Source of the DNA: an uncultured Candidatus Saccharibacteria bacterium
GTDB lineage: Bacteria > Patescibacteriota > Saccharimonadia > Saccharimonadales > UBA4665
Assembly: GCA_964499935.1 (NCBI GenBank)
Contig: CAZCMS010000001.1
Coordinates: 674,452-738,451 of the forward strand
Direction of reading: 5' to 3'
DNA: 64,000 bases
The notes below the pieces were generated by a model. That model made no database searches, had not been told where the DNA came from, and worked only from the letters and a program-made list of their open reading frames with translations. This document shows positions 6,007 to 64,000 of the stretch, piece by piece (the first letter of the stretch is position 1; each line of letters begins with the position of its first letter). The position numbers and the translations under genes were made by a program.

Positions 6007-6939
6007 TTACTTTGGCTTTCTGGCAAGTTCACGTTTTAACTTCGGTGGAATCATAACAGACATGTCTTTTTTATCGCCCAAAATACTCGGGGTATGAGCG
6101 TGGGAATTCATTACTACTTGCGTGTAATCACTGAACACGACACGCATATGCTGCTCGACATTATAGTTATTGAAATAATGATCGTTACTCGCAGCAACAT
6201 GCCATACAGGAAGATCTATCTTGGTCCGGCAATTATCGAGGTCAAGAAATTCACTGGTAGTTGCCCAGTGGGTGCGAACATCGTTCGATTGCCATAGCTT
6301 TACTTCAAACTTCATCATTGCGTCGAAATCTGTAGTTTCCATACCCTCGATACGTTTCTTGCCGGCAGGCAAGCGCACATAGATATTCTTTATTACAAAC
6401 GAGTTAAGTCCTATATACCGAATAAGCCACGGTACAGGTCGGGCTGCGAATACACGAGTTGCCTTTACGAAGAATTTGCGCTGTCGTGGAGAGAACAAAA
6501 AGTCGTCCCGATGCATAAATCCAACAATACTAACCAGCAAATCCACTTTTTTAGCAAGCTCAGGATTGCGCTGTAACATACGTGTTGCAACAATAAAGCC
6601 ATACGAAATACCGACAATAGTAATGCGTCTACGCTTGTATTTCATCTTAACAAACGCAGCTAGATAGTCGGCCATGTCGTCCAGCGTGGGTTTTCGGCCA
6701 ATCTTGTACATGCTGTCCATGCCACCAAATCCAGGTAGATCGACCATGGTGACAGCACCGTAATCGTTAAGATTTTCTACTAACCCAAACCAGCGCTCCA
6801 ATAAAGCATGGTGCCCGTATACCAAAAGAATCTCGCGCTTTTTATTTTTGGGAGCAGGTACCCTTAACATACGTCCACGCATGCCATGAATATTGACATC
6901 CGCTACATAGTCAGCAAGATCTTGTTGTTTTTTACCCAT
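6007..6939 (-). CDS. Alpha/beta hydrolase
   Basis: 310 aa with a nucleophile elbow GISYG and alpha/beta-hydrolase-like spacing. Confidence 0.6.
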   Translation of the reverse strand: MGKKQQDLADYVADVNIHGMRGRMLRVPAPKNKKREILLVYGHHALLERWFGLVENLNDYGAVTMVDLPGFGGMDSMYKIGRKPTLDDMADYLAAFVKMKYKRRRITIVGISYGFIVATRMLQRNPELAKKVDLLVSIVGFMHRDDFLFSPRQRKFFVKATRVFAARPVPWLIRYIGLNSFVIKNIYVRLPAGKKRIEGMETTDFDAMMKFEVKLWQSNDVRTHWATTSEFLDLDNCRTKIDLPVWHVAASNDHYFNNYNVEQHMRVVFSDYTQVVMNSHAHTPSILGDKKDMSVMIPPKLKRELARKPK

Positions 6940-20106: not shown

Positions 20107-20657
20107 AGTGGTGCTCCTATTTTACTGTGGATGAAATTGTAGTATGCAGCGGAATCTTTGCTGAAGGTGCGAGTGCTCACGATATTGAGACCTTTGACGT
20201 TCATTTCAGATATTGTCCATGCACCCGTGACAGCATCTACATCAAAGACGTAGGCAACATGCCCAAACTCACCACGATCACTTTGAAAGACTGCGCCGAC
20301 TCGTGGAGTGTGGTTCACCTCATATCCATCAGCTCTCGCCCGATCATCCCACGTATTCGCATTACCCCAAGTCGCTGGAATAGGACTACCCGCCCAGAGA
20401 CGCATCGCAAACGACCAGTACGTACAGTTACCCCAAGCGTACGTATTACCTGGTACTTCTGGTCCCATATAAAAACCTTGCGTGGCTGCTGCTTCGGCAT
20501 TTGGAGTGGCAGCCAGAAACGATAGCGCTTCCTCGCCCAGTGCTAACACCGACATAAAGGGCAGGCTTACAATCACCACCAGACTTACGACAACTGCTGC
20601 GATGTACTTACGTGTACCACCAGAGTTCATTAAGGTGACGACGAGACCTGTATTCAC
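20070..20657 (-). CDS. CHAP-domain peptidoglycan hydrolase
   Basis: 195 aa with an N-terminal TM/signal, catalytic Cys context GNCTYWS and His context GHVAYV. GTG start overlaps the VirB4 stop (GTGA). Confidence 0.75.
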   Translation of the reverse strand: MNTGLVVTLMNSGGTRKYIAAVVVSLVVIVSLPFMSVLALGEEALSFLAATPNAEAAATQGFYMGPEVPGNTYAWGNCTYWSFAMRLWAGSPIPATWGNANTWDDRARADGYEVNHTPRVGAVFQSDRGEFGHVAYVFDVDAVTGAWTISEMNVKGLNIVSTRTFSKDSAAYYNFIHSKIGAPLWTPAPLLITGQ

Positions 20658-22387
20658 GAATAGAGCTCCGCAGGATTGGTAGTAATGAGCGGATGTTCTT
20701 TCGGTGAGGCCACCACTTGCACTGCAACGTGATGCTGATCGGCAATAATCAGGGCATCACCTCGATCACAAGTAAGCAGGAACTGTTTCTCGTATTCACT
20801 CAGATTAAATTCGCTAACAACGTTTTTAATCGTGGTCGTATCTTGACGCATGAGAATACGAAGTGCACTTTGCGATGCAATGGCTCGTCCATAATCAGAT
20901 CTTAGAAAGTCATTGGCTTGCTGAGATATGATCGACACACCGAGGTAGTACTTGCGAGCACGACGCACGAGGCCTGACACAAATCGTGCAGACTCTTCAT
21001 GCTCAAGCAACATCCAACCCTCATCAATAATGAGGAGGCGCTTTTCGGGATTAGCTTTGACTTGGTTTTGTGTGAAATTCGAGATGATCAACATCATGAT
21101 TTGACGCAAGCTTTCGGGCAAGTCTTTAATATCGAAGATAACAAGACGGTTATCGAGTTGAATATTGGTATGCGCGTTAAAGACACTTGAAAGACTACCG
21201 GAGATATATTTCTCCAAGCGTTCACAGAGTTTGATCTGTCCAAGGCTGTGAAGTTCGGCATAGAAATCTTCAAGCAATGGCATCTGGTCTTTGTGTTTTT
21301 TATAGACTTTGAGGATGGCCTTATCTACCGCAGCTTTCTCGCGGGAACTAAGGCCTTCCGCCATCAACCCAATCACTTCAGTTAAGTCTTGAGCGTGTTC
21401 AGATAGGTCGTCGCCTTTATGAAAGGTGGTCGCAAGATCAAAGGGGTTAATCTTCTCGCTGCTTTTGGCTGACAATTTAATGTACGTGCCGTTGACCGAC
21501 TCAGCGAGCCGTTTATATTCACGCTCGGGATCAATCACAATTACTTTTGTGCCTTGCATAAGCTGACGGAGTATCTCAACCTTGGTTGTGTAGCTTTTAC
21601 CTGAGCCACTCTGGGCAAACACAATTGAATTGGCGTTATGGAGACTAAACCGATCAAGGATAACAAGACTATTGTTAGATTTGTTGACGCCATACAAGAT
21701 ACCAGACTCTTGCACGAGCTCACTACTCATGAACGGAAAGGTCAGTGCAGCCGAGCTACTATCCAAATTTCGTTTCTGAGCTAACTGATCTTCTCCTCGT
21801 GGCAAAATTGACTGCAAAGCCTCAAGCTGTTGGTAGCGAGCGATCTTGCTATAAAACAAGCGTGCCGATAAAGTCGCTTCAAGTAGTTTCGTAATCTTGT
21901 TGAGTTCCTCTAGGCTATCTGCGCGAAGACAGACGTAGATACTCATCTGAAACAGTTTTTCTTGGCCACGTTGGATTTTATCTCGCAGTTCAATTGCTGA
22001 TTCAAGTGGGTCGGTAATTTCGCTGCCGACAATCTTACCAGCCCGCATCATGGCGCGCTTGGTTGATTCAAGCTCAGTAATCTTACGATGCAACTTTGGC
22101 AGTGCAAGGAGCGCGTTCACTTCGTGTACATGATAGGAAATATCGCAGTCGTGGTTGAAGTTGATAATACTGTCCATCCAGCCAGAATTTGCTACGAACG
22201 GATAACCGGCGATGAACAGGGTACGGATATAAACGCCGTCAAGGCAGAGATAGTCTGCCTGCTCCTCCAGACCAGCATAGCTCAGTACATCAACGGCATC
22301 TTGCTCACCAAAGGCCAGAACTCGTTCTTTGGCCTTCTGCTGTCGTTGCTCGCGCTTCTTTGCAACTTTTTGTATAACTTGCTGCAT
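20654..22387 (-). CDS. virB4: VirB4/TrbE-like T4SS ATPase
   Basis: Walker A AQSGSGKSY and Walker B LLIIDEGW. Start set at the internal ATG (MQQVIQK) behind GGGAGGA, directly after the upstream gene stop. Confidence 0.85.
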   Translation of the reverse strand: MQQVIQKVAKKREQRQQKAKERVLAFGEQDAVDVLSYAGLEEQADYLCLDGVYIRTLFIAGYPFVANSGWMDSIINFNHDCDISYHVHEVNALLALPKLHRKITELESTKRAMMRAGKIVGSEITDPLESAIELRDKIQRGQEKLFQMSIYVCLRADSLEELNKITKLLEATLSARLFYSKIARYQQLEALQSILPRGEDQLAQKRNLDSSSAALTFPFMSSELVQESGILYGVNKSNNSLVILDRFSLHNANSIVFAQSGSGKSYTTKVEILRQLMQGTKVIVIDPEREYKRLAESVNGTYIKLSAKSSEKINPFDLATTFHKGDDLSEHAQDLTEVIGLMAEGLSSREKAAVDKAILKVYKKHKDQMPLLEDFYAELHSLGQIKLCERLEKYISGSLSSVFNAHTNIQLDNRLVIFDIKDLPESLRQIMMLIISNFTQNQVKANPEKRLLIIDEGWMLLEHEESARFVSGLVRRARKYYLGVSIISQQANDFLRSDYGRAIASQSALRILMRQDTTTIKNVVSEFNLSEYEKQFLLTCDRGDALIIADQHHVAVQVVASPKEHPLITTNPAELYS

Positions 22388-22388
22388 A

Positions 22389-23048
22389 CTACAATCCTCC
22401 CTCAGCCTGTACGAGTGCAGTGTGCATAAGCTGCAGAGCTTGCTCAGTGAGTGGCTGTAGCTTAGCTTGCGATGGATTATAGAAACTATAGAACAGATCA
22501 AGAATTTCGAGACTCGATAGCTGGCGAGTATGCATGCCGACGCGGGTCATACCTTTACTGACAATGTCGAGCTTGAGCGATAGCTGTTCCTTCACCAGTT
22601 CAAAGTTTGCTTTGCTATTACCAACATAGGGCACAATAACGTAGAAATGACGGGTTAGTATCTTGTTATTCGTAATGAGGGAACGAATAAACTCATCGTA
22701 GTATTCGAGCTGCGAACGGTAGATAGCTTCCGGCTCATTGTCTTTGCGAAGCGCCACATCGGCCAGATATTTATCCATATCAATTTCACGGGTGCGAATC
22801 AGAATCTGTAAACTACTGCCAACCGAGTTCAAGAAGCTCTCATAGGTATCAATAATCGCGTCCTGTTCGTCTTCACTCCTGAGTTCAAAGTTGAGTGATG
22901 ATACCTGTAGTACCGCCCGGTACTGGTGACGGGGTAACATAAGGATACCGTCACGTACCCCTTGAATATCTACCTGGCTACGACTTGACGCTTTGGCTTT
23001 CGACTTCTGTAAAGCGAACATGGAGGCCTCCTTTCTTGGTTGTTTCAT
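22389..23048 (-). CDS. T4SS-associated hypothetical protein (resembles the N-terminal domain of Gram-positive VirB4 homologues)
   Basis: 219 aa in the T4SS operon. The pattern DIQGVRDGILML..YRAVLQVSSLNFELRSEDEQ recalls VirB4/TcpF-type N-termini. No ATPase motifs. Confidence 0.4.
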   Translation of the reverse strand: MKQPRKEASMFALQKSKAKASSRSQVDIQGVRDGILMLPRHQYRAVLQVSSLNFELRSEDEQDAIIDTYESFLNSVGSSLQILIRTREIDMDKYLADVALRKDNEPEAIYRSQLEYYDEFIRSLITNNKILTRHFYVIVPYVGNSKANFELVKEQLSLKLDIVSKGMTRVGMHTRQLSSLEILDLFYSFYNPSQAKLQPLTEQALQLMHTALVQAEGGL

Positions 23049-23499
23049 ATCTTACGCCAGCTTCGGGGTTGTTGAGCGCCGACAGGATTTTGCTTGATAC
23101 ATGAAGTGGCAATCGGTCAGGTACGGCTGCGACTACCTCTAGGCTTTCTTCCTTCAGTTCCGTACCTGTCTCGACCTCACGGTAATCTTGCCGCAACTGA
23201 GTGGTATTTTTGTTCCATATATAGAGCTGAGGTCTCAGGTTGTATCGGAGAATGATCAGGAGCCAACTGGCCAAAATCTTGCCACGAATACGAATCGTCA
23301 AGATCAGACAGATGACCGCTACTATCGTCATAAGAATATATTTGTAGATAGTGCCTGCCATCATGGGCGGAGGTAAAACGTACAATCCAACACTGACAAA
23401 GATCGGGACAACGAGCAGTACTATTTGCGAAAAGCCAAGGCTGCCAATGATCCGATCCTCAATAGTCGTCACTTGCGCGGGAACAACAGTTACTTTCAT
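22978..23499 (-). CDS. PrgI/VirB3-like small membrane protein
   Basis: 173 aa. N-terminus MKVTVVPAQVTTIEDRIIGSLGFSQIVLL followed by two TM helices, as in PrgI-family proteins. Confidence 0.5.
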   Translation of the reverse strand: MKVTVVPAQVTTIEDRIIGSLGFSQIVLLVVPIFVSVGLYVLPPPMMAGTIYKYILMTIVAVICLILTIRIRGKILASWLLIILRYNLRPQLYIWNKNTTQLRQDYREVETGTELKEESLEVVAAVPDRLPLHVSSKILSALNNPEAGVRYETTKKGGLHVRFTEVESQSVKS

Positions 23500-24989
23500 A
23501 TTTTCTCTCCTTTCTTAGTGGTATTTACTTTTGTTTTCATATCCTCGACAGCAGCACTGCGCGATGTGGGCTCCGATGCCTCGTACGTTGATCCTGTTTT
23601 TTGAGACACGCCTTTTGGCGTTGGCTTTGCGTTATAGGCCATCTGAGCAGTACCCCGTTTATTTTCAGCACTTTGCGACTGTCCTGTTCGTATCGCCTGA
23701 TTTTCAACACCTGGCTGTATCCACTTTTTCTTCGCCGTATCTGCCTTGGAGCTTACTGCTGTGGCTGCTGCTTTGCCACCACCAGCAATGTAACTGACAC
23801 CGTTCATAAACTGGCCACCAAGCTTGCGAGCATTGCGCGATCCAAGACTGACGTAGCTAAATTGCATCATGACACCCTGTGTACGAAGTAATGCCATGAC
23901 CGTGGCGAGCCCTACGATCATCGCCAAAAGCGTATCTGGCGCCTGATTACTATTCACGGCTGACATACCTGTAAACAATGAGGCTGCCAGTTGCAGGATC
24001 ACCACATGCACGAACAGGACGAATATTGTTGAGAGATACGTCTTCGCTGCTGTCTCCGAGAAATCTCGAAAGCCAGGCACGAGCCAGAGAAGCACCACCA
24101 GTGGCGATAGTACCGCACCAATAAACAATGTCACCAAACGACCGACGTAATAGACCAACAGTATGACCGTAAAGATCAGAAATGCCATCATCATGAGCAG
24201 GGCAGCAACTCCCTGACCTCCAGATTCTTTAACGACGCTCGTAAGTATTTGCCATACCGACGAACTACCTGACAGTTTACCGACGGCCTGGATAAGCACG
24301 TTGGACAGCTCAATAATCCCATCAATCAGGAACAGCGACGTGTTAATCAGCAGGAATATGAGCCCAACTCTCGGAAGAAGGTGCTTAAACTCTATCTCGT
24401 CAAATCCAAAGCTCGCAGCACTCATGACATGTAATCCGATCAGCGCCAGTATCACCACAAACAGCGCATTCGCAATCGCCACCATGCCAAGCCACAGATT
24501 AAACACACTTTGGTTGTCCGCCATCAGCGGCGTTGCTTTCGTAAAGAAGTCTAATGCTGCCAGAAATGGCGAGGCCACTGCTTGAATAATGTTATTTAAG
24601 AACCCAGTGACAGCCTTAATCAAAATGTCGACAAGTCCGTTGCTGACGCTATTTGGTGGTATTGCCTGTAAACTCGGCAAACTACTTTGCTGTGTCGCCG
24701 TGTTATGCCCATAGGCATTCACTAGAATCGACGTCAGTGTTACTGCTGCAAGGACTATCACCATGCCGATCAATGCACTTTTTAGCACATGCTTAGCATG
24801 CTCCATCTGTTCAGGCCTACCGGCACTGGTCATATACATATAGCCCGAGTTCACAATGAAGAACGTACAGACAATGCCAGCTAACGCCGCAAAGAGTCGA
24901 ACAGTCGGCGTTACCCAATCTCTTACAACACTAACGGCACTCGATGCATCAGCAAAGAAAGATAGGTGGATGAGAAGTATGTCACTCAT
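23496..24989 (-). CDS. VirB6/TrbL-like polytopic T4SS channel protein with N-terminal pilin-like segment
   Basis: 497 aa with about 8 TM helices and a Lys/Thr-rich C-terminal tail. N-terminal segment SGYMYMTSAGRPEQMEHAKHVL is similar to the upstream pilin-like gene. Confidence 0.55.
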   Translation of the reverse strand: MSDILLIHLSFFADASSAVSVVRDWVTPTVRLFAALAGIVCTFFIVNSGYMYMTSAGRPEQMEHAKHVLKSALIGMVIVLAAVTLTSILVNAYGHNTATQQSSLPSLQAIPPNSVSNGLVDILIKAVTGFLNNIIQAVASPFLAALDFFTKATPLMADNQSVFNLWLGMVAIANALFVVILALIGLHVMSAASFGFDEIEFKHLLPRVGLIFLLINTSLFLIDGIIELSNVLIQAVGKLSGSSSVWQILTSVVKESGGQGVAALLMMMAFLIFTVILLVYYVGRLVTLFIGAVLSPLVVLLWLVPGFRDFSETAAKTYLSTIFVLFVHVVILQLAASLFTGMSAVNSNQAPDTLLAMIVGLATVMALLRTQGVMMQFSYVSLGSRNARKLGGQFMNGVSYIAGGGKAAATAVSSKADTAKKKWIQPGVENQAIRTGQSQSAENKRGTAQMAYNAKPTPKGVSQKTGSTYEASEPTSRSAAVEDMKTKVNTTKKGEKI

Positions 24990-25009
24990 GGCCGAGGCCT
25001 ACCTATCTC

Positions 25010-25354
25010 TTAGCTGCCCCCAAAGGCATTAGTTGCCAGTGTTGCCACGATATTACTGATGACAAAAGCAGCAATCACGATAGCTAAGCCGATAGCCGAC
25101 CAAGTGAGGGTACGTTTTGCCTTATCTAGCTGCTCAGGATTACCCGAACTTGTGATGTAGGTAAATCCGCCGACCACAAAAAAACCGGTCGCAATGAGAC
25201 CGGCCAAACCTGCAAGCGCTTGAATCACGCCTCGGACAAAGTTTTGAACTTGTCCTATATCTCCCCCGGCAGCAAACGCCGGGGCACTCACCGCTAACGG
25301 CATCCCCAACGCCACAAATGCTGCGACAAAAAGTTGTTGTTTATGCTTCTGCAA
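25010..25354 (-). CDS. VirB2/TrbC-like pilin
   Basis: Signal-like N-terminus ending AFAA, then two hydrophobic helices around TYITSSGNPEQLDKAKRTL. TTG start chosen behind GGAGGA; the track ATG at 25432 lacks an RBS. Confidence 0.5.
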   Translation of the reverse strand: MQKHKQQLFVAAFVALGMPLAVSAPAFAAGGDIGQVQNFVRGVIQALAGLAGLIATGFFVVGGFTYITSSGNPEQLDKAKRTLTWSAIGLAIVIAAFVISNIVATLATNAFGGS

Positions 25355-25676
25355 CTTGTTTTCCTCCACTAAATAGTTGATACAAGGGAAATGTATCACA
25401 CTTGTAAAGCCATAAATACAGCTTAAGCGCAATCATAAAAACATAACAATTATTATCAACAGGTGCGAAAACATTGACTATTTTACAATATACTTTTTTG
25501 CATTTTTATCGAAAGATGTCTTAATTTAATAATTATTTAATAATCTAGCTCCAGTTGGTGCTATGGTTGCCACCCCTATATTTAGAATAAGCCCAGAGAA
25601 GATAAATGAGCCTGCAACCCTACTTCAACGTATCTTATAAACCATGTAACTTTGCCTGCATCAAGGACTGTCTAGG

Positions 25677-30702: not shown

Positions 30703-30759
30703 TGCAGTTTCGTCGTTTACGACTCGTCAGTATAGCTTATATGTAATCTATAGACTGCT
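30703..30759 (-). ncRNA. Type III hammerhead ribozyme (copy 4, divergent helices)
   Basis: The minus strand reads GCAGU-C/UAUAG-12 nt-CUAUA/CUGACGA/GUCG-UAAA-CGAC/GAA/ACUGC. All core positions, G10.1-C11.1, A15.1-U16.1 and a GUC cleavage triplet are present. Confidence 0.8.
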
Positions 30760-30903
30760 AGGGAAGGGGTGTGATAGCCAAAAGGCTATTGATTCACACT
30801 CCCTCCCGGAGTTTTACTGGTTAACTCCACCAGAATCGATTTGCACGAATCGTGCCACCCTTCGATTAAAAGGTGTTACCTGAATTGACCGTAAACGATC
30901 AGA

Positions 30904-31146
30904 TCAGCCGTTCATCACCTTGGTGGTGACTTGAACAACCGAGTTGGGTTCGAGAACCTCATCCAGCTGGGCCTCACGACCGTTCACCTGGACCATCAGA
31001 CCTTGCTTGACCCTAACGTTCGCACAAGCGAGCGCATTAGCAACGGTCATGTCAGACGCATAGTCCAACTGATGGAGATCACCACCGAGCACAGCAACCT
31101 GCACCCAGCTCGGAGCTTCCTCGGCCACAACGATATCCGTAGACAT
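30904..31146 (-). CDS. Ubiquitin-like beta-grasp protein (ThiS/MoaD-like), C-terminal Gly
   Basis: 80 aa. VQVNGREAQLDEVLEPNSVVQV resembles ThiS/MoaD. Ends KVMNG-stop. GAGGAG RBS. Last gene of the E2-JAB-E1 operon. Confidence 0.65.
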   Translation of the reverse strand: MSTDIVVAEEAPSWVQVAVLGGDLHQLDYASDMTVANALACANVRVKQGLMVQVNGREAQLDEVLEPNSVVQVTTKVMNG

Positions 31147-31173
31147 ATCTACTTCACTACTCCTCTGTATTGA

Positions 31174-31842
31174 TCAGCGACTGAACAATTGTGCTTCTCG
31201 CACATGTACATCGATGTACGACTTGAGCTCCATATCTCGCGCAAATCGTGTCAACTGAGCAATCATGTGCCCAGCCAATACTACCGGCGGATGGATCACG
31301 GTACGCGCTGCGCACGGCAAAGGCGCACCCTCTCCATCAGGAAAAAGCCAATCCTTCTCGTAGGTGTCCACCGCATCCATATCCAGAGGGTTCAGCGCAA
31401 GCAATGTCATTTGCTCGCCACCAATCCGACCGTCAAGGTACAAAGGAACATCCGGGTTGAACTTGACTGACCCCCAAATATCGCATCGAGCCTGCATACT
31501 GTCTACACCGCTGATGACAACACCGCTGAGCGGGGTTTCTGCTGTCACAAATTCCTGGTGTGGAACAATGCTGCACTCAGACTCTCTGTAAGACTCCAGC
31601 ATTTCTGCTGCAGCCTCCACCTTGGGCCTACCAACATCGGTGCGGGAATAGATCAACTGCGCTGGCACATTGTGCGGCTCCACATAGTCCAAGTCCCACA
31701 AATGCAGCTCGCCACGAAGGCCGAGCTTCACCAACGGGAGCACCACAGCGCTACCGATTCCGCCGACACCAATCACATGGACAGGCCAGGTGAACTTACT
31801 CGGGTCGAAGATATCCGTCTGACCAGAATAGTCAGCAATCAC
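31174..31842 (-). CDS. ThiF/MoeB-type E1-like adenylating enzyme
   Basis: Rossmann motif IGVGGIGS, plus DLDYVEPHN and GVDSMQAR motifs. GTG start 7 nt after the JAB stop and behind GAGGTGA; the longer track ORF overlaps the JAB gene. Confidence 0.8.
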   Translation of the reverse strand: MIADYSGQTDIFDPSKFTWPVHVIGVGGIGSAVVLPLVKLGLRGELHLWDLDYVEPHNVPAQLIYSRTDVGRPKVEAAAEMLESYRESECSIVPHQEFVTAETPLSGVVISGVDSMQARCDIWGSVKFNPDVPLYLDGRIGGEQMTLLALNPLDMDAVDTYEKDWLFPDGEGAPLPCAARTVIHPPVVLAGHMIAQLTRFARDMELKSYIDVHVREAQLFSR

Positions 31843-31849
31843 AATTACT

Positions 31850-32479
31850 TCACCTCTCGATCTGAAGATTCGTAGGGTCGTATGGTACCGCATCAGCTGA
31901 AGCGCGAGGCTCCAAAGGAACGGTACGAAGTCGCCCAAAAAAACCCATCCCCTGGCTACGCACCTTGAGACGAATCTCGTCGGCGGTGCTGTCAAGCAAG
32001 CCTTCGTCGAACACTGTCACAATCTCGGGTATCACATCAATCTCGACCCGAAAAGGCTCGAAAATGTCCAAGCGACAGCGAAACTCGCCACGCTTGTTGA
32101 CAACCAGACTGATCAGCCAATCTCCAGGCCAGCGCTCAATATTCGCCGTATCGGTAGGGGAGAAATAGGACTCCATATTGACATGACTATGCCACTGGAA
32201 CTTGATAGATCCAGGATTCCCCGTACCGCTCAGCACCATCTCGTGAATGAAATGGGTCAGTGCATCATGGTCCACCTCAGCGTGTCCGGGCGAAGCCACT
32301 TGGTCCAAAATGAACACATCCTTCACACGGATGATGTCATCACGCACCTCCACCAAGCCAAATCCGTTGATCTCGGTCGGGCAATTGATGACGTATGCCA
32401 TCATCTTCTGCCAATCCTGAAACGAAATCTGCACTCGGGGGATACGAATCACTGCGGGGCCTGCCAAATTGACCGACAT
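31850..32479 (-). CDS. JAB/MPN (JAMM) metallopeptidase
   Basis: 209 aa with upstream Glu (TEINGFG) and the full JAMM motif HSHVNMESYFSPTD (HxHx7SxxD). Confidence 0.85.
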   Translation of the reverse strand: MSVNLAGPAVIRIPRVQISFQDWQKMMAYVINCPTEINGFGLVEVRDDIIRVKDVFILDQVASPGHAEVDHDALTHFIHEMVLSGTGNPGSIKFQWHSHVNMESYFSPTDTANIERWPGDWLISLVVNKRGEFRCRLDIFEPFRVEIDVIPEIVTVFDEGLLDSTADEIRLKVRSQGMGFFGRLRTVPLEPRASADAVPYDPTNLQIER

Positions 32480-33925
32480 CTACTTCATCTCCTCTTTATA
32501 CACGTGGAATGCTTGCAAAACATCTTTCTGATGCTCGGGGTTAACCGAACATAGACATTCAACTATCAAAGCCATCGCCTCAACATACTGCGCCTTGGCA
32601 AGGTGTTCATTGACGACTCTCTCCCGATTACCAAAACAAAACGCTCCGGTAGAGAGTCGATATACCGGGTAGCCACCTCTCCAGCTGCTCTTCACACCTG
32701 ACCGTAGCTCTTTTGCCGTTACCGTCAAGGTGTCGGCGCCAAGATCTACCTGCCAATCACCCAGGTCGTACGCTACCCCACTGTATTCATTGATGGCTCG
32801 CACGATGAGACGGATGCGATTGTTCACAACCTGCACTGCCAAAACTCCAGGCAGAGACATGATGCGATCAAATTCACCTCCAATATTCATCTCGAACAGT
32901 TGCTCGTTGGTTTCTTCGATAGCTCGCTCCAGGATCTGCTGCTGACTCGTCAAGTCATTTATCTCACCTTGCTGGCTTTTAACTTGCTCAGCGAGTGATC
33001 GCAAGACCTCGCGACCCCGCTTTACTGCCAAAACAACTTGCTTATGAGCCTCGATTCGATTCTTTTGCGCACTTTCTTGTCGCATTTCTACGTATACTGC
33101 ACGAGCACTATTAGGCGAGCTGGCATACGTCCGACTCACAGCAGGCCGCACCTCCGACGTTGAGTCTCCTCCCCCAACCAGAACATCTACTGGATTATGT
33201 CCATAGAAGTCAGGGGGCACCCACTCATCAGGTGGCGTCCACTCATCCCTTGGCTGGTGTTGCACGTCTCTTGCGCCTGGCTCCATCCTGGCTTGAAGTG
33301 GAGGATCCCAGCGAAGCAATAGCCCGCTCACAATCATGCTCAACCACCAAAAGGGGCCAAACATAAGCGTGACAACAAAGGGCCACACGTATCGCCAGGG
33401 CAAATCTGCCAATCGATGCTGCTGCTGTTCGTCCCGAAGATCAACCATATAGGCTATCAACGTTACTAGGCTAAAGAGCAGCCACATAACCAACAGTCCT
33501 GGATCAAAATACACAGCCGTTATAAAAGGCTTGAGACTGCTTTTTGTAAGGCCTAGCTTTAGTGGCTCACCTGTCTTGGCGACTTGCTTCAGCTGCCTAA
33601 GTTCCTTGGAATCTGAATCGAAAGGCTCCTCCTTATTGAGCTTGGCACTCAAATCCTGAAGACTCAAGACTTGTGTTGCCATCTGCATGCGTTTGCCACG
33701 TGTTTCTTCACTGACATCTTTTACATGCTCTTTGTTAGAGAGCATGATTTGAGCCAGTTTTTGGTTATTTCCCACGTTGTGGTTGGTGACCAAAACAATA
33801 CCGCCAGCGATAGCGATAGCAATCACACTCAATACGAGCGCAGCAATAAACATCAACGCTATCGATTCTCCGATATTGCGATCGATGAAGGTACCAAATC
33901 GCAACGGTGTCTCACGACGCGTCAT
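32480..33925 (-). CDS. Membrane-anchored coiled-coil protein with putative E2 (UBC-like) C-terminal domain
   Basis: 481 aa with TM helices near residues 20-45, 145-165 and 180-205, a Pro/Trp-rich linker, and a heptad-like region. The C-terminus has a four-strand pattern, then YPVYRLSTGAFCFGN (resembling HPN-x-G-x-IC-L of E2s) and a helix. Its stop directly abuts the JAB start. Confidence 0.45.
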   Translation of the reverse strand: MTRRETPLRFGTFIDRNIGESIALMFIAALVLSVIAIAIAGGIVLVTNHNVGNNQKLAQIMLSNKEHVKDVSEETRGKRMQMATQVLSLQDLSAKLNKEEPFDSDSKELRQLKQVAKTGEPLKLGLTKSSLKPFITAVYFDPGLLVMWLLFSLVTLIAYMVDLRDEQQQHRLADLPWRYVWPFVVTLMFGPFWWLSMIVSGLLLRWDPPLQARMEPGARDVQHQPRDEWTPPDEWVPPDFYGHNPVDVLVGGGDSTSEVRPAVSRTYASSPNSARAVYVEMRQESAQKNRIEAHKQVVLAVKRGREVLRSLAEQVKSQQGEINDLTSQQQILERAIEETNEQLFEMNIGGEFDRIMSLPGVLAVQVVNNRIRLIVRAINEYSGVAYDLGDWQVDLGADTLTVTAKELRSGVKSSWRGGYPVYRLSTGAFCFGNRERVVNEHLAKAQYVEAMALIVECLCSVNPEHQKDVLQAFHVYKEEMK

Positions 33926-33944
33926 CAGAATTCTCCCTTGTATA

Positions 33945-33994
33945 GTTTACTTCCAGTTTCAAATCTCGCTAAAGGTCTAAAACTGGAAGTAAAC
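33945..33994. repeat. Perfect 15-bp inverted repeat (cassette A 5' hairpin)
   Basis: GTTTACTTCCAGTTT (33945-33959) and AAACTGGAAGTAAAC (33980-33994), about 20 nt upstream of the operon start codon. Confidence 0.8.
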
Positions 33995-34217
33995 CGCATA
34001 CACAATTCAGGTAAATTATTAAAATACAAAGACACAATATCAACCATAAAAGGTCAATCTTACTCCTTGAATCTTATATTTAAATATAAGCACAAAATAT
34101 ACATTTAGTCAATTAGGTCGTATGATGAAACTATTCACCAATAGACGCCTTGAAATAAAATATACATACATAGGTATTAACTTTGGATAAATTAAGATTT
34201 ATAGGATAATACAGTCA

Positions 34218-40530: not shown

Positions 40531-40665
40531 ATGAAGGGTAAAATGGACAAAATGAGTGGCAAAGCTAAAAAAACCGCAGGAAAAATCACCGATGATAAAG
40601 AGCTAGAAGCTAGAGGTAAAATGCAAGAAACCGCAGGAAAAGTTAAAGAAAAAACAGTTCGTTGA
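40531..40665 (+). CDS. CsbD-family stress protein (44 aa)
   Basis: Hand translation gives MKGKMDKMSGKAKKTAGKITDDKELEARGKMQETAGKVKEKTVR, behind RBS GGAGAAG. Typical CsbD repeat pattern. Below the ORF-track cutoff. Confidence 0.7.
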   Translation: MKGKMDKMSGKAKKTAGKITDDKELEARGKMQETAGKVKEKTVR

Positions 40666-40755
40666 CGAAAATTCAATTTTCTTGTATGATGTTACCTACG
40701 CAATGTAGATAGTAATCCGTTGCCGTATCTTGATAAGCAAAACATAGTTCGTATG

Positions 40756-40805
40756 AAGCGAGGGACAATGATAAAATCCACCGATTTTATAACTGTCCCT
40801 CGCTT
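40756..40805. repeat. Nested inverted repeat (cassette B 5' hairpin)
   Basis: 12-bp perfect arms AAGCGAGGGACA / TGTCCCTCGCTT enclosing a second stem ATAAAAT / ATTTTAT. Confidence 0.75.
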
Positions 40806-40864
40806 TGTGCAATACGTGCACACCAGCATTATGCTGAAAATCGAGGCAAAACCAAGGAATTGCT

Positions 40865-41251
40865 ATGCTGACAGTAGACAGACAGGAAACGGCAGAGGTA
40901 GCACATACGTGTGGCCTGACCGGTGACGCGAGTCTCATGATTCGCCTCGAGAGCGATGAGGTTCACAAGGAGCGACTGCAAGCTATGCTTCCGACGCTGC
41001 TGACCAAAGACGTTGCTCGACAGCTGAGTAGGGAAGTCTCGATCAATCGTCCTTGCGACCCGAGGAGGACGCCCAAAAATAGGAGTGGAGATCGATCAAT
41101 ATCGGTCAGTGTCGCTGGAGTTCAAGTCTCGCTACATATTGAAGTAACGACGCGGAAGCCTCAGGACTTCGAACCTTTCATTTGGGCAACGCGTGAGTTG
41201 TTGGTGCCGATTCTCGCGGGTCAGCTGACCGTATATAAGAAAATGCTCTAG
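40865..41251 (+). CDS. Hypothetical protein (GC-rich cassette B)
   Basis: 128-aa ORF with RBS AAGGAA 5 nt upstream. Higher G+C than the flanks. No recognisable family. Confidence 0.5.
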   Translation: MLTVDRQETAEVAHTCGLTGDASLMIRLESDEVHKERLQAMLPTLLTKDVARQLSREVSINRPCDPRRTPKNRSGDRSISVSVAGVQVSLHIEVTTRKPQDFEPFIWATRELLVPILAGQLTVYKKML

Positions 41252-41313
41252 TCAATAACAGAAGTAACCCAGTGGCGAAAGTGACTCGCAACAGCATATT
41301 CACGCTCAGCTCG

Positions 41314-41340
41314 CACCGTCTGGTGTCTGTTTTCGTGTTT
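41314..41340 (+). terminator. Short terminator-like hairpin plus GT-rich tract
   Basis: CACC-GTCT-GGTG followed by TCTGTTTTCGTGTTTT. Confidence 0.4.
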
Positions 41341-41354
41341 TGTTTTGCTTGTCA

Positions 41355-41414
41355 TTTTCGCTCTACAAATTAAATAGTTGTACTGATGAGTCCTCAGGAG
41401 GACGAAAGCGAAAG
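41355..41414 (+). ncRNA. Type III hammerhead ribozyme (copy 1)
   Basis: UUUUCGCU-C/UACAA-9 nt-UUGUA/CUGAUGA/GUCC-UCAGGA-GGAC/GAA/AGCGAAAG. An 8-bp helix III, 5-bp helix I and 4-bp helix II, with every invariant core base present. Confidence 0.85.
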
Positions 41415-55447: not shown

Positions 55448-55593
55448 GGAGTTAGTTAGGTTGTTGCTATTGATTATACATTCTTCTTACCATAATTAAT
55501 CATAAATTGACTAATATATAAATTAATACTATGATAAAATACCCTGTTGAATCTACATTCCAGTGGTGTACCTTGACAATCAGACAGTTATAG

Positions 55594-55653
55594 ACACGAG
55601 ATAAGATAGTGCTTCTTTAATTATTTTTTAAACAGCGCTACCTTATCTTGTGT
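55594..55653. repeat. Long inverted repeat (cassette C 5' hairpin)
   Basis: ACACGAGATAAG...CTTATCTTGTGT arms (one G-T pair) with partially paired extension. Related in sequence to 62157-62212. Confidence 0.7.
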
Positions 55654-55737
55654 CCTATGTGCAAAGAAAACATAGAACCGAAGTGTGCCCTAAGGGCATA
55701 CAACTGGCAAATAGTCAGAGATTAGGGGAAAGATAGT

Positions 55738-56205
55738 ATGCTGTCGTGTGATTGCCAGAAGGATAAGAGAGTTCACTACCCCAAGCCCAGTATGTGCGAC
55801 TCCCTGGCTCATGTCCTGTCAAAAGGTCACGTCATGGACGTGAAATACAGGAAGCGCATTGTATTGCTTCGTGGTAGCGAAGCCCCTTTTGCGGAGACCG
55901 TCGTCAACCTGAGTTATGCTGACGAGGGAATCTTCAAAGAACCCAGGTGGTATCTCGACCGTGACCCCAGCTTGACACCTGAAGGCGTGATCGCAGTTCG
56001 CGTGGAACGTGTTACAGAGATGAAGCTCTGCATTCCTTCTATGAGTAGGAATTTTGTAACGACCGTGCTGCCTGAGCCCAGTCGCGTATCACCTACGTTC
56101 TTCATCGATGGAACGTTGTGTCGCAATGGCGCTCGGCCTACCACCGTTCGAGATCGATACGGGAACGAGCACAAGTACGACCCCAAAAAGATGCGGGTCG
56201 TCTAG
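55738..56205 (+). CDS. Hypothetical protein (GC-rich cassette C)
   Basis: 155-aa ORF behind RBS AGGGGAAAG. GC-rich, with no recognisable family. Confidence 0.5.
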   Translation: MLSCDCQKDKRVHYPKPSMCDSLAHVLSKGHVMDVKYRKRIVLLRGSEAPFAETVVNLSYADEGIFKEPRWYLDRDPSLTPEGVIAVRVERVTEMKLCIPSMSRNFVTTVLPEPSRVSPTFFIDGTLCRNGARPTTVRDRYGNEHKYDPKKMRVV

Positions 56206-56290
56206 CTCTCCTAGCAGAGTTCGAGCAGCCCATTTCTCAAAATCACCAACCAGAAAGGATCCTCGAGCGAACTAGCAACAGACATAACTT

Positions 56291-56310
56291 CACGGTCTTT
56301 CCGTGTTTTC
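56291..56310 (+). terminator. Rho-independent terminator-like hairpin
   Basis: CACGG-TCTTT-CCGTG followed by TTTTC. Confidence 0.5.
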
Positions 56311-56341
56311 TTATACCCTACTGTACTGTCTGTTTGTCATG

Positions 56342-56399
56342 TTTCGCTCTGCAAATAAAAGAGTTGTACTGATGAGTCCTAGAGAGGACGAAAGCGATA
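56342..56399 (+). ncRNA. Type III hammerhead ribozyme (copy 2)
   Basis: UCGCU-C/UGCAA-9 nt-UUGUA/CUGAUGA/GUCC-UAGAGA-GGAC/GAA/AGCGA. Helix I has a G-U where copy 1 has A-U. Confidence 0.8.
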
Positions 56400-61168: not shown

Positions 61169-61225
61169 TTTCGCTTTCGTCCTCTCTAGGACTCATCAGT
61201 ACAACTAAATATTTGTAGAGCGAAT
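61169..61225 (-). ncRNA. Type III hammerhead ribozyme (copy 3)
   Basis: The minus strand reads AUUCGCU-C/UACAA-8 nt-UUGUA/CUGAUGA/GUCC-UAGAGA-GGAC/GAA/AGCGAA. It lies 13 nt from the cyoE stop on the opposite strand. Confidence 0.85.
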
Positions 61226-61243
61226 ATGACAAACAGACAAAAG

Positions 61244-61263
61244 AAAAACACACGGAAACCGTG
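61244..61263 (-). terminator. Rho-independent terminator-like hairpin
   Basis: Minus strand CACGG-TTT-CCGTG followed by TGTTTTT, downstream of the 61323-62078 gene. Confidence 0.5.
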
Positions 61264-61322
61264 CGAATTAGAGAAAGCCTAGCGTCATACTCGCAGTAAC
61301 GCATATTGCTAAACCCAAAGAG

Positions 61323-62078
61323 TCAGCGAACCGTGTATAGATAGGGCTGTACGCTATAAGGCGTCGTAACGATAGCTTCGCTATCGTTCCAGCCAACATA
61401 TTGCCTCAGTGCGCTCATCACCGTATCGTGATGTGCGATTCGATCGTGCTCTCGATTAGCGACAATCCACACGTCGCGACCAGAGATCCTCACAGAACGG
61501 ATAGCCCCTGTGTCCGCCAAAAGCAAGCGCAAGCGCACCCACCCAAGACCACCGGCCTCGTACTGCACATTCGGCGCAATCTCCGAAGCCATGTCGGGGC
61601 CGAGCTCCAGGGAAAACCGGTACTGTCTCGTGTAACCCGAGAACAACGAACCAGGGTAGTCGACCCAGCTGATACTCCGAGCGACCTCAGAGACCTCTGC
61701 CTTCGTATAACAGTACGACTGTGTCGGTTGCTGTGGCAGTCGATCCATAATCAAGAGCGCGTTGACGCGATCAGCGATCGCACGAAGATACTCAAGTGCT
61801 TCTTCGCACTCGAATACATCGTTCGCAATCGTTACGCGGAGCGCTTGTGCGTTGACTTCGATCGTGTCGACGTGAGCAAGCTCCTTGAAGAGCATACGAA
61901 CAAACATCAACGGCTGGCGATCCATGAGAGCCATATGAGCCGGATCCTGCATATCGACACGCCGAATCTTACACGGCGTACTGTCGGGCGGAAAAATTCC
62001 CTGAGGAACGAAAAAACTCACCTCATTTCTGGCAATCTCGATCAGAATCTTCACGGTATTATTGGTCATAACAGACAT
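61323..62078 (-). CDS. Hypothetical protein (GC-rich cassette D)
   Basis: ORF with start set at the internal ATG (MSVMTNN) behind GGAGAAAG. GC-rich, with no recognisable family. Confidence 0.5.
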   Translation of the reverse strand: MSVMTNNTVKILIEIARNEVSFFVPQGIFPPDSTPCKIRRVDMQDPAHMALMDRQPLMFVRMLFKELAHVDTIEVNAQALRVTIANDVFECEEALEYLRAIADRVNALLIMDRLPQQPTQSYCYTKAEVSEVARSISWVDYPGSLFSGYTRQYRFSLELGPDMASEIAPNVQYEAGGLGWVRLRLLLADTGAIRSVRISGRDVWIVANREHDRIAHHDTVMSALRQYVGWNDSEAIVTTPYSVQPYLYTVR

Positions 62079-62156
62079 ACTGTTCTTTCTCCAAACCTGT
62101 GGCACAATACCCTCCTACAACTGTAGGAGCTGTGTTTTTCTGTAACACATCACAAG

Positions 62157-62212
62157 ATAAGGTATCGTCACTTAAGTTAATTATCATAAAAACTTAAGCA
62201 GCCATACCTTAC
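62157..62212. repeat. Long inverted repeat (cassette D 5' hairpin)
   Basis: AAGGTAT / ATACCTT and CTTAAGT / ACTTAAG arms. On the minus strand, ACGAGGTAAGGTAT...GATACCTTATCTTGTG parallels cassette C. Confidence 0.7.
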
Positions 62213-62347
62213 CTCGTATTGGTGCTATCTGATTGTCAATATACATTCTTGGAGTTACCTCAACAAAGAATATGTATATTATATACTATAATAAATGTAA
62301 CAGCAAAAAAGCGTGTACTTTATATTCATAAGCGCTATAATATAGAT

Positions 62348-62599
62348 ATGATCTTAGTACTTCACATCACTATTGCGCTCGCAAGCATCATATACACCTC
62401 CATGACATATATTTCACCAACGAAAGGCAAGGTTCAAACCTCATCCGGCCTAGCTGCATTAACACTACTAACAGGCACTGTGCTCGTTATCAGCACACAC
62501 AGTGCTCTACTGCAGGCATGCGCTACCGGAGTCACTTATCTCGCTATAGTATCGGTAGGCATTATTGCAGCGGACCGTAAACTCAAACGTTCTCATTAG
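62348..62599 (+). CDS. Small hypothetical membrane protein (83 aa)
   Basis: Internal ATG directly after TATAAT. Three hydrophobic segments. Confidence 0.4.
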   Translation: MILVLHITIALASIIYTSMTYISPTKGKVQTSSGLAALTLLTGTVLVISTHSALLQACATGVTYLAIVSVGIIAADRKLKRSH

Positions 62600-62816
62600 A
62601 ACTTGCATAAAATACCTATCTCTATCACCTGCGGTAAAAAAGATACGCATTCTATACGCTCAATATAGGGAAAAACGACAAGCAGGCACAAATACACAGA
62701 GAGAAAACACACCAGGATAGGCGAGAATCAAACATGTTATCATGCCTACTTGTTGCTTGCCCTAGCAACGAGCAACCTTTTGCACAAAGGTTAGCCAAAG
62801 CTAATACCAAGGACGA

Positions 62817-63290
62817 TCAGCTCAAGCTGATGGCGATTCCCTGACCACCCAGGAGGAGACGCTGGTAAAGACCTTGCTGCGACTCATCGCCACGCGTCGT
62901 GATACCCGTAGTCGACTTGACGTCTTCGCCAACCTGCTGCAGAAGCCCCATATAGAGCCACGCCTGCACCACGAAATAGGCATTCTCGAAAGGGATAGCG
63001 AACTCGCCGATAGAGACATATACCTCCGCGACAAACTCGGTCTCCATAATGACCAACGAGAAATCACGCGAATCAGACACAGACTGATCGGACATGTTCG
63101 GGGAGCAGTCATGCGAAATGCAGTGCAATTCGTTGGCGAGCCCCTCAGCAATCTCGGAGAAAACCTCCTCCAAACGATCCTTCGTAAACCGACCCGAGGC
63201 CGACGTAGACAGCTTGATCGAAACCTCACCACCATGACCAAACTTGATGGTGGTCTCCGCGAAAACCTGCTCCGGTACCGAAGTAGACAT
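62817..63290 (-). CDS. Hypothetical acidic protein (GC-rich cassette E)
   Basis: 157-aa ORF behind the strong RBS GGGAGGAGAG. Competing frames on both strands lack an RBS. Confidence 0.55.
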   Translation of the reverse strand: MSTSVPEQVFAETTIKFGHGGEVSIKLSTSASGRFTKDRLEEVFSEIAEGLANELHCISHDCSPNMSDQSVSDSRDFSLVIMETEFVAEVYVSIGEFAIPFENAYFVVQAWLYMGLLQQVGEDVKSTTGITTRGDESQQGLYQRLLLGGQGIAISLS

Positions 63291-63372
63291 ATGTTCTCTC
63301 CTCCCTATAAGGGAATCGTTTCTCCATTACCACCCAAATGGGCGCCAGATTCTTGTGTTTTTCGTACTGCTA

Positions 63373-63427
63373 CACGAGAATGAGGAAAGAACCCAGAAAA
63401 CTTGCTGAATTTTTTCCTCGTCTCGTG
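63373..63427. repeat. Long inverted repeat (cassette E 5' hairpin)
   Basis: CACGAGAATGAGGAAA / TTTCCTCGTCTCGTG arms with a loop of about 24 nt, 83 nt upstream of the 63290 start. Confidence 0.7.
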
Positions 63428-63781
63428 CAGGCTATTATATACCTGCTTGTCAAAATACGTCTTTGGAGTTGCCTCAACAAAGATTAAACATAATTTTATA
63501 ACTTTAATAGTGTTGTGTCAAGTATATTTTAGGGATCTCTTGAGGCTCTTGCTCTCTTTCGGTTTTGTTATATATAGCACCTAAACATTGCATTATTAAC
63601 ATTTTTATGATATAATTTATGCACTTTGTAGAGTGTTGTGGCATTGGCTCATTACTCCGAAGTACATTAACAGATCTCTGTCTATTGAGTTAGGCTACCG
63701 TTTTGGCCGGCAACATATATATGATCGAACTTTTCATTGTATGTATTTTGCCCGCCAAAACAACAAAGGAGCAGTGGCGAC

Positions 63782-64000
63782 ATGGTAACGACCGATACGA
63801 CCCGTCTGGGTGAGTTCGACACCAAGCAGGTAGCGGATTTGCGCACCCAGCGTCGTCGAAGCATCGACAATGCTGCACGCACCATCACCAGCAATATCCC
63901 GGGAGTCATTGGGGTATGCCTCTTCGGCGATCACGTTCGAGACGTCGACAAGGACACCAGCACCATCGACCTGGTCGTCATCAGCGATGCGATTCACGAG
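63782..64000 (+). CDS. Nucleotidyltransferase-domain protein (MNT-like), N-terminal part, runs off the window
   Basis: ATG behind AAGGAG. Translation MVTTDTTRLGEF...GVIGVCLFGDHVRDVDKDTSTIDLVVISD fits the minimal NTase pattern G..lFGS.aRG....SDiDl.v. Absent from the ORF track because no stop lies in the window. Confidence 0.6.
   Translation, partial: MVTTDTTRLGEFDTKQVADLRTQRRRSIDNAARTITSNIPGVIGVCLFGDHVRDVDKDTSTIDLVVISDAIHE

Follow-up and report, generated by a model that had tools for sequence, protein, structure and literature searches.

Cassette D, a candidate ribozyme-processed mRNA chassis with exchangeable cargo in Saccharibacteria

Reports of hammerhead ribozymes beside small genes that are variable and not conserved date back to 2011; most concern prophages, where the ribozymes are suggested to cut transcripts into gene-length mRNAs (PMC3088659, PMC6155905). 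The function of the hundreds of hammerheads found in bacterial genomes is still described as largely elusive (PMC6765202). Here we analyze a 64,000-nucleotide (nt) stretch of DNA, hereafter the window, from an uncultured Candidatus Saccharibacteria bacterium (assembly GCA_964499935.1, contig CAZCMS010000001.1, forward-strand positions 674,452 to 738,451). Near its end lies cassette D, a minus-strand unit in which a structured leader and a type III hammerhead frame a gene of 251 amino acids (aa). We favor the reading that cassette D is a member of a lineage-wide family of ribozyme-processed, end-protected mRNA chassis with exchangeable cargo, and we assign this reading a probability of roughly 0.6.

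As in the prophage modules of Perreault et al. 2011, a canonical hammerhead stands here beside small open reading frames (ORFs) whose identity is not constant. The units in the window differ from those modules in being chromosomal and placed between housekeeping genes, with one 3′ hammerhead and a promoter of their own rather than several ribozymes per transcript. They also show covarying leader hairpins, a predicted panhandle abutting stem III, GC-enriched cargo and swaps at orthologous loci, and their matches fall mainly in Saccharibacteria and other Patescibacteria. That hammerheads associate with variable genes is already known, and the cassettes are not categorically new. In the library searched, we found no paper that links hammerheads or other small ribozymes to Saccharibacteria, TM7, Patescibacteria or the candidate phyla radiation, nor did we find a description of the chromosomal, promoter-bearing unit, of the covarying leader, of the panhandle at stem III, of the GC-rich orphan cargo or of the cargo swaps.

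Architecture and RNA elements of cassette D

Cassette D consists, in order of transcription, of a putative promoter, a 5′-terminal hairpin (H0), a 5′ arm, three leader hairpins (H1, H2 and H3), a ribosome-binding site, the cargo ORF, a terminator-like hairpin, a 3′ arm and the hammerhead (Table 1). The initial annotation had placed its upstream end at 62212; the unit runs past that point and also takes in the 5′ arm, H0 and the promoter. The −35 box of this promoter is weak, so a consensus scan did not list the site. The best two sigma-70 matches between 55.3 and 64 kb lie directly upstream of the leaders of cassettes E (11/12) and C (10/12), and each unit has its own promoter-like site. The window holds six units of D's design, A to F, on both strands and dispersed over 30–64 kb.

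Comparison with its sister unit, cassette C, bears out all the features first described for cassette D. The 5′ hairpins of the two units are homologous, with ACGAGGTAAGGTAT...ATACCTTATCTTGT of D aligning with ACGAGATAAGATAG...CTACCTTATCTTGT of C. Their 3′ ends are also common to both, in an alignment that spans CACGG-loop-CCGTG, GTCTGTTTGTCAT and the hammerhead. The cargo proteins are unrelated (BLASTP E = 16); the 251-aa gene of D is an orphan, and its hammerhead is one of three copies of a 28-nt core in the window. What the initial annotation missed is that the ends are RNA elements, namely a covarying leader hairpin and a 5′–3′ panhandle by the hammerhead, and that this design is found throughout Saccharibacteria.

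The 28-nt hammerhead core occurs at 41383, 56369 and 61172 and is absent from 100 shuffles of the sequence. The hammerheads of C and D share 36/36 identical bases (BLASTN E = 3e-15), and a fourth, divergent hammerhead, CUGACGAG, closes the four-gene GC-rich block of cassette A. The D hammerhead carries the core CUGAUGA...GAAA with an A15.1-U16.1 pair, as do those of B and C; A is alike, with CUGACGA. Its stems III, I and II are 6, 5 and 5 base pairs (bp) long, stem III is open and H17 is C. We predict that it self-cleaves in vivo at the site given in Table 1. There is one hammerhead per unit, at the 3′ end, and no hammerhead core motif was found at the 5′ end. One genome per species was scanned with the pattern CTGATGAGTCC-N3-8-GGACGAAA. 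Among the matches listed, 114 of 137 pattern matches form the full type III fold; within these 114, stem I takes 81 different sequences and stem III takes 80, and in no case is position 17 a G.

Several units contain altered ribozymes (loci in other genomes are given as L numbers). The hammerhead of cassette E is degenerate in the same way in the window (62640-62700), in L003 (9590-9660) and in L255 (6690-6760), and both arms are kept; the panhandle thus seems to be retained in cassette E without the ribozyme. The trailer of F-type cassettes holds a hammerhead-like, incomplete sequence, UGAUCGUCGUUAAGACGAAAA. Hammerhead remnants also occur without cargo, one in L003 just behind the FAD oxidase gene (7790-7860, with G12 changed to A) and one in L257 from which stem I and the core are deleted (6160-6230). 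Each of these remnants resembles a scar left where a cassette was lost or has decayed.

The long leader hairpin H1 covaries. We extracted the leaders of 20 cassettes by anchors and aligned them; RNAalifold finds 22 pairs in H1, 19 of them with compensatory changes. H1 cells are paired in 93.2% of cases, compared with 69.4% in shuffles (0/500 reach the observed value) and 33–52% when the partner is slid. Frequent G·U pairs on the sense strand argue for a structure of the sense-strand RNA. H0 is common to D, E (CTTTGTTGAGGCAACTCCAAAG) and many Saccharibacteria leaders and has a variable loop, and the H2 motif UGUGU-loop-ACACA likewise recurs in other Saccharibacteria leaders.

The unit also has two short arms. 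The 3′ motif GTCTGCTTGTCAT abuts stem III of the hammerhead, and the 5′ motif, TTGACAAGCAGA / TTGACAATCAGA, is its reverse complement, which predicts a 5′–3′ panhandle in the RNA. We rejected a reading of the 5′ motif as a −35 box, on account of this complementarity and because there are better promoters upstream of it. In cassette D the arms would pair through 10/11 Watson-Crick pairs and one U·U, plus two G·U pairs. When the whole unprocessed transcripts of C and D are folded (RNAfold), both the minimum free energy (MFE) and the centroid structures place the arms in a long-range helix around the ORF, with the hammerhead folded apart. The panhandle is also part of the MFE structures of the processed B, C and E RNAs, at 14 bp in B, and the fold of the whole C transcript is far more stable than those of shuffles (z = −5.55).

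Arm sequences differ completely between loci while their complementarity is kept, over 24 nt in L074, 25 nt in L107, 22 nt in cassette X of L003, 17 nt in L080, 16 nt in L013 and 13 nt in L114. In a leader-restricted cognate-rank test on 86 cassettes, 28% have a 3′ arm for which the unit's own leader ranks within the top 5% of all partners (Wilcoxon p = 1e-5). With a lenient, symmetric wobble score taken over all 2.4 kb upstream, a test without power, complementarity reaches z ≥ 3 at 5/106 loci. In clear cases the 3′ arm ends 0–5 nt before stem III. Between the small 3′ hairpin and the 3′ arm lies a pyrimidine-rich tract (window 56291-56315 and 61239-61265). The MFE structure of C pairs part of this tract with the Shine-Dalgarno region (UAGGG/CCCUA and AAGA/UCUU), a pairing that is inconsistent across B, D and E. 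For C, this fold hints at a possible anti-Shine-Dalgarno interaction of the 3′ untranslated region (UTR).

Distribution, cargo and turnover

The hammerhead pattern occurs at more than 118 genome loci, overwhelmingly in Saccharibacteria and other Patescibacteria among the matches listed. A metagenome scan with the 3′-end pattern returned 12 matches, five of which are real cassettes. Viral contigs, too, contain this core pattern in abundance among the matches listed; none of the 126 viral matches listed has the Saccharibacteria 3′ arm, and GC content does not rise upstream there.

In Patescibacteria other than Saccharibacteria, a GTTCTTTGA-like motif often lies 3–12 nt behind the hammerhead (L007, L009, L014, L027, L098, L101, L102, L115 and L121). 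At several of these nine loci a Shine-Dalgarno sequence and start codon follow, and there the ribozyme lies within a transcript, with genes on both sides. Roughly twelve low-GC contigs labeled Gammaproteobacteria (among them L013, L074, L053, L051, L061, L078 and L117) have the same hammerhead, GC-rich upstream ORFs and panhandles of 16–24 nt. Either these contigs are misassigned bins or the design reaches beyond Patescibacteria.

Cargo genes stand apart in composition and are seldom related to one another. In the window, their GC content at third codon positions (GC3) is 0.52–0.67, as against 0.34–0.48 in neighboring housekeeping genes. Among the matches listed, the ORF upstream of the hammerhead is usually 100–250 aa long, with a GC content above that of its locus; 127 such ORFs fall into 115 clusters, almost all mutually unrelated, and about 85% have no Pfam match while about 15% have one. 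The recognizable cargoes include Band-7, NUDIX, ThiF/E1, DinG, Csx16 and phage GP88 families. Those few recognizable members (ubiquitin-like protein (Ubl)/E1/JAB, nucleotidyltransferase, Csx16, Band-7 and NUDIX) suggest that the cargo may have a role in conflict or defense.

The protein encoded by cassette D has no match in Pfam or PADLOC. Among 5.8 billion proteins it has just two relatives, at 97% and 53% identity, and nothing credible was added when 1.84 billion representatives were searched exhaustively with a profile. Its AlphaFold2 model is poor, with a mean predicted local distance difference test (pLDDT) score of 47.5, too low to justify a fold search. Comparison with the ortholog in L003 gives a ratio of nonsynonymous to synonymous substitution rates (dN/dS) of ∼0.27; the dN is 0.43, roughly threefold the 0.15 of cyoB. 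By this measure of its sequence evolution, the D gene is a real gene under purifying selection.

Ends and cargo part company when orthologous loci are compared. At the C locus of L003, from a related species (CyoB 80% identical), the leader and 3′ end are ∼85–90% identical to those of the window and the ORF is unrelated, so that the ends are more conserved than the ORFs. L016 and L017 have in common the upstream gene, promoter, H0, 5′ arm, hammerhead core and downstream flank, and everything between is unrelated. Stem III of the L016 hammerhead contains a C·C mismatch (5′ strand UUCCC vs 3′ strand GCGAA; L016 1500-1580), consistent with a chimera formed by a cargo swap whose junction would fall within the conserved core, 3′ of the cleavage site.

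The same turnover shows over several relatives in the interval from cyoE to the FAD oxidase gene. In the window it holds D, an 83-aa gene, E and F; in L003 it holds D′ (53%), E′ and a different cassette, X. In L255 (CyoE 86%) the position of D is taken by an unrelated 127-aa cargo with an intact, covarying hammerhead, and E″ (71%) is present as well; in L257 there is a single small cassette with a decayed hammerhead. Cassettes are thus present or absent between relatives. A homologue of F in L255, recognizable by its leader, arms, trailer and protein (40% identity), lies across the FAD oxidase gene from the place that F occupies; the F-type cassettes (L255 9400-10260; window 63590-64000 / L004 7560-8560) have identical arms, TTAACAGATCTCTGTC / GACAGAGAACTGT.

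The initial annotation took conserved ends with swapped cargo as the signature of a cassette or mobile module. The first half of this description is strengthened by the C locus of L003, the L016/L017 pair, the D position in L255, presence and absence between relatives and the relocation of F. Autonomous mobility fares worse: D, E and C are syntenic across species. No integrase, transposase or reverse transcriptase (RT) is among the Pfam families listed for the 48 other window ORFs (six single-member families lie outside that listing), and no integrase family is among the Pfam matches of the cassette ORFs. The alignment of filled and empty sites has no target-site duplication and no clean junctions; the intergenic sequences simply differ.

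Among the other units of the window (Table 1), cassette A resembles a bacterial ubiquitination-like set on the same chassis: its genes encode a membrane-anchored 481-aa protein, a JAB peptidase (209 aa), a ThiF/E1 protein (273 aa) with PADLOC E1-E2/BilD matches, and an 80-aa ubiquitin-like protein. An E1 45% identical to that of cassette A is encoded in L091 (7030-7734), likewise with a hammerhead behind it. The terminator-like hairpin of D has its counterpart in C, according to the consensus scan. Cassette F is cut by the end of the window, and the rest of it is visible in L004. The conserved 83-aa membrane protein gene between D and E lies directly behind cyoE in L257 (5880-6131) and is absent from L255. 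Elsewhere, the window contains a type IV secretion-like cluster with a GC content of 0.45–0.51, slightly above the rest of the window, that encodes a TraG P-loop protein, HerA/DUF87 and AAA_10 ATPases, TrbC/VirB2-type pilins and a CHAP protein. Fic, PIN and SLT genes are also among the scanned window ORFs.

Table 1. Coordinates of cassette D, its sister units and neighboring features in the window
Feature	Position	Strand	Basis or remark
Cassette D, whole unit	~61169-62306	minus	
D, putative promoter TTGCTG - 17 nt - TATAAT	62278-62306	minus	Read from sequence
D, H0, 5′-terminal hairpin AUUCUUUGUUGAGG..ACUCCAAGAAU	62245-62271	minus	Folded in MFE and centroid
D, 5′ arm UGACAAUCAGAUAG	62225-62238	minus	Complementary to 3′ arm 61227-61240
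D, H1, long leader hairpin ACGAGGTAAGGTAT...ATACCTTATCTTGT	62152-62217	minus	Alignment with cassette C hairpin
D, H2 (UGUGUU..AACACA) and H3 (CUCCUAC..GUAGGAG)	62112-62149	minus	Sequence and MFE
D, Shine-Dalgarno region GGAGAAAG	62085-62092	minus	6 nt upstream of ATG at 62078
D, cargo ORF, 251 aa	61323-62078	minus	Orphan protein; GC 0.53, GC3 0.60
D, GC-rich small hairpin CGCACGGUUUCCGUGUG, then U-rich tract	61249-61265	minus	Terminator-like by consensus scan
D, 3′ arm UUGUCUGUUUGUCA	61227-61240	minus	Complement of 5′ arm; ends 2 nt before hammerhead stem III
D, type III hammerhead	61169-61225	minus	Intact core CUGAUGA...GAAA; predicted cut after C61218
Cassette A, four GC-rich genes	30704-34100 (30.7-34.1 kb)	minus	
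A, 12-bp arms	34003-34014 / 30876-30887	minus	
A, divergent hammerhead	30704-30758	minus	
Cassette B, whole unit	40662-41413	plus	
B, 5′ arm, followed by H1	40731-40744	plus	
B, cargo ORF, 128 aa	40865-41251	plus	
B, 3′ arm	41341-41354	plus	
B, hammerhead	41355-41413	plus	
Cassette C, whole unit	55507-56399	plus	Sister unit of D
C, promoter	55507-55535	plus	
C, 5′ arm	55574-55588	plus	
C, H1	55596-55651	plus	
C, cargo ORF, 155 aa	55738-56205	plus	
C, terminator-like hairpin	56291-56305	plus	Consensus scan
C, 3′ arm	56325-56339	plus	
C, hammerhead	56341-56399	plus	
Cassette E, whole unit	62640-63521	minus	
E, promoter	63493-63521	minus	
E, H0	63461-63482	minus	
E, 5′ arm	63438-63451	minus	
E, H1	63373-63427	minus	
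E, cargo ORF, 157 aa	62817-63290	minus	
E, 3′ arm	62677-62690	minus	Hammerhead decayed
Cassette F	63590-64000	plus	Window end cuts through
F, H0	63623-63663	plus	
F, 5′ arm	63670-63682	plus	
F, nucleotidyltransferase-like ORF	from 63782	plus	
83-aa membrane protein gene	62348-62599	plus	
Type IV secretion-like cluster	17494-25432	minus	

Proposed mechanism and alternatives

Building on the observed anatomy, H1 covariation, distribution and cargo turnover, we propose the following mechanism. A sigma-70-type promoter would drive an RNA that starts with the terminal hairpin H0 and continues with the 5′ arm and the conserved structured leader (H1, H2, H3 and the Shine-Dalgarno region). This RNA would encode a GC-rich, fast-evolving, lineage-restricted protein and close with the 3′ arm, complementary to the 5′ arm, and at once after it the type III hammerhead. 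The hammerhead would cut itself off, leaving a 2′,3′-cyclic phosphate a few nt beyond the 3′ arm, and the two arms would fold the mRNA into a panhandle. Together, H0 and the panhandle may protect the message by giving it defined, exonuclease-protected ends. By setting the 3′ end, the hammerhead would also uncouple the unit from its downstream neighbors: it may insulate D from antisense read-through into the convergent cyoE, and C from the cyo operon, whose cyoA lies 50 nt further on. We infer these stabilizing and insulating effects by analogy with what is established for other bacteria on 5′ stem-loops, UTR pairing and ends that carry a cyclic phosphate. In the DNA, meanwhile, the conserved sequences of the promoter, leader and hammerhead would act as homology patches through which the cargo is replaced without a recombinase of the unit's own; homologous recombination through the conserved ends would most simply explain the observed turnover. 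A wider proposal is that Saccharibacteria, and possibly Patescibacteria more widely, maintain an integrase-free gene-cassette system on a standard RNA chassis, whose ends serve both as protected termini and as homology arms by which fast-evolving conflict or defense genes enter, are exchanged and move between loci and genomes. We advance this only tentatively and rate it somewhat below even odds.

Several observations weigh against the chassis reading. Against the gathering score of 48.5 for Rfam Hammerhead_3 (RF00008), the hammerhead of C reaches 37.2 bits (E = 2.9e-5) and that of D 28.9 bits (E = 0.0065); both fall short, and there is no match at the gathering threshold; the low scores are due to stem and loop lengths and not to the core. 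The panhandle of D, with its U·U mismatch, is the weakest and is missing from the MFE structure of the processed D RNA. A terminator-like hairpin and U-tract lie just upstream of the 3′ arm in both C and D, and if this terminator is efficient, most transcripts would lack the 3′ arm and the ribozyme. Moreover, cassette E keeps its arms with a decayed hammerhead and F lacks an intact one, so the ribozyme is dispensable for at least some units. Finally, the arms show an unbiased ratio of G·U to A·C of 7:3, which is not significant (a biased count gives 12:2), so the arms could act as inverted repeats in DNA; and any stabilizing effect and any function of the cargo are wholly inferred.

In the likeliest alternative, the units are mobile DNA elements, similar to insertion sequences (IS) or miniature inverted-repeat transposable elements (MITEs) or invertible, whose arms are terminal inverted repeats that an enzyme encoded elsewhere moves or flips. 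All six units in the window have inverted repeats of 11–25 bp around their cargo, the segment replaced between L016 and L017 starts right behind the 5′ arm, the intergenic site of F-type cassettes differs between two relatives, and the G·U and A·C count does not separate RNA from DNA. We nevertheless consider this explanation unlikely. The arms differ among copies A to F of a single genome, and one enzyme could not recognize them all. Conservation reaches outside the arms into the promoter, H0 and the hammerhead, and in C vs C′ the swap junctions lie inside the arms. Within the 64 kb no transposase, integrase or invertase is listed and no target-site duplication was found, and the units have the same orientation in all independent assemblies. 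The position of the 3′ arm is also fixed relative to stem III, which points to a role in RNA.

The cassettes might instead stem from phages, as morons or as what is left of prophage modules whose hammerheads turn long transcripts into single-gene mRNAs. This would fit the known prophage examples, in which variable, non-conserved genes have hammerheads beside them (PMC3088659, PMC6155905), the abundance of the core pattern in viral contigs, the moron-like combination of atypical cargo composition with an own promoter, and the few cargoes that match phage or defense families. It is made improbable by the setting of the units, which lie between housekeeping genes (the cyo operon, LPG synthase and FAD oxidase) with no phage genes nearby and are syntenic across species. 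The viral matches listed have neither the Saccharibacteria 3′ arm nor an upstream rise in GC content, and the units, with one hammerhead and one promoter apiece, do not belong to a polycistronic array.

Another possibility is that mobility or function resides in the transcript itself, either as a retrozyme- or viroid-like RNA that is circularized or reverse-transcribed once the hammerhead has cut or as an unusually stable export RNA. A unit of ∼0.8–1.1 kb with one ORF, a whole-RNA fold as stable as that of C, ends joined by a panhandle and a hammerhead that would yield a 2′,3′-cyclic phosphate are all in keeping with it, but we regard it as very improbable. One hammerhead per unit would leave a 5′ triphosphate and not a ligatable 5′-OH, no RT is listed in the window, and the untranscribed promoter sequence is conserved between copies as well. 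The L016 junction, in the hammerhead core 3′ of the cut, would also be unexpected if the processed RNA were the intermediate.

Finally, the notion that these are plain paralogs or genes gained by horizontal transfer, with regulatory UTRs in common through duplication, to which the common leader and trailer of C and D and the vertically inherited D and E orthologs at the same loci could be fitted, is highly unlikely given that the cargoes are unrelated and less conserved than the ends, that the architecture with covarying helices recurs with unrelated cargo across many Saccharibacteria genomes, and that the cargoes lack homologs in well-sampled donor groups.

If the wider proposal holds, the cassette system would provide a concrete biological role for a large class of bacterial hammerheads. 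With the ribozyme as a fixed part of a repeated, delimited unit, the purpose of bacterial hammerheads becomes testable, and the group has cultivable, transformable members. The cassettes also set apart a large pool of GC-rich orphan genes of these ultra-small epibiotic bacteria as a distinct, rapidly turning-over compartment, and the leader and panhandle are candidate new RNA families.

Comparison with known systems

The cassettes share features with several known genetic systems beyond the prophage modules. As in integrons, unrelated single genes are framed by conserved, hairpin-forming ends, vary between strains and gather in hot spots with several cassettes. Unlike in integrons, no IntI integrase is listed for the window and there are no attI or attC core sites here. 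Integron cassettes form a promoterless tandem array in one orientation that is transcribed from Pc, whereas the units in the window have their own promoters, are dispersed and occur in both orientations. Their hairpins, moreover, covary as sense-strand RNA.

The arms of 11–25 bp recall the terminal inverted repeats of IS and MITE elements, although the conserved sequence continues outside them. In contrast to such elements, no transposase is listed for the window, the arms differ among A to F, and there is no target-site duplication. Phage morons are likewise autonomous units of promoter, gene and 3′ end that deviate in composition and sit between genes that are adjacent in relatives. The cassettes differ from morons in that they are not in a phage, share a structured leader and have a 3′ end that consists of a ribozyme and a predicted long-range pairing rather than just an intrinsic terminator. 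Retrozymes and viroid-like circular RNAs also combine a type III hammerhead, a unit of ∼1 kb and ends joined by pairing. Those systems circularize by way of two hammerheads, which allow a 5′-OH and a 2′,3′-cyclic phosphate to be ligated, or of multimeric transcripts, and they depend on RTs, whereas the units described here have one hammerhead and a DNA-encoded promoter, and no RT is listed.

Long-range pairing within an mRNA has precedents of its own. The 5′ and 3′ UTRs of the Bacillus subtilis hbs and Staphylococcus aureus icaR mRNAs pair with each other, and in these messages, as in the processing stems of rRNA, pairing over hundreds to thousands of nt affects nuclease access or translation. 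The hbs and icaR genes are single conserved genes, whereas in the Saccharibacteria cassettes the pairing is predicted to be a portable feature of a whole cassette family, coupled to a self-cleaving ribozyme.

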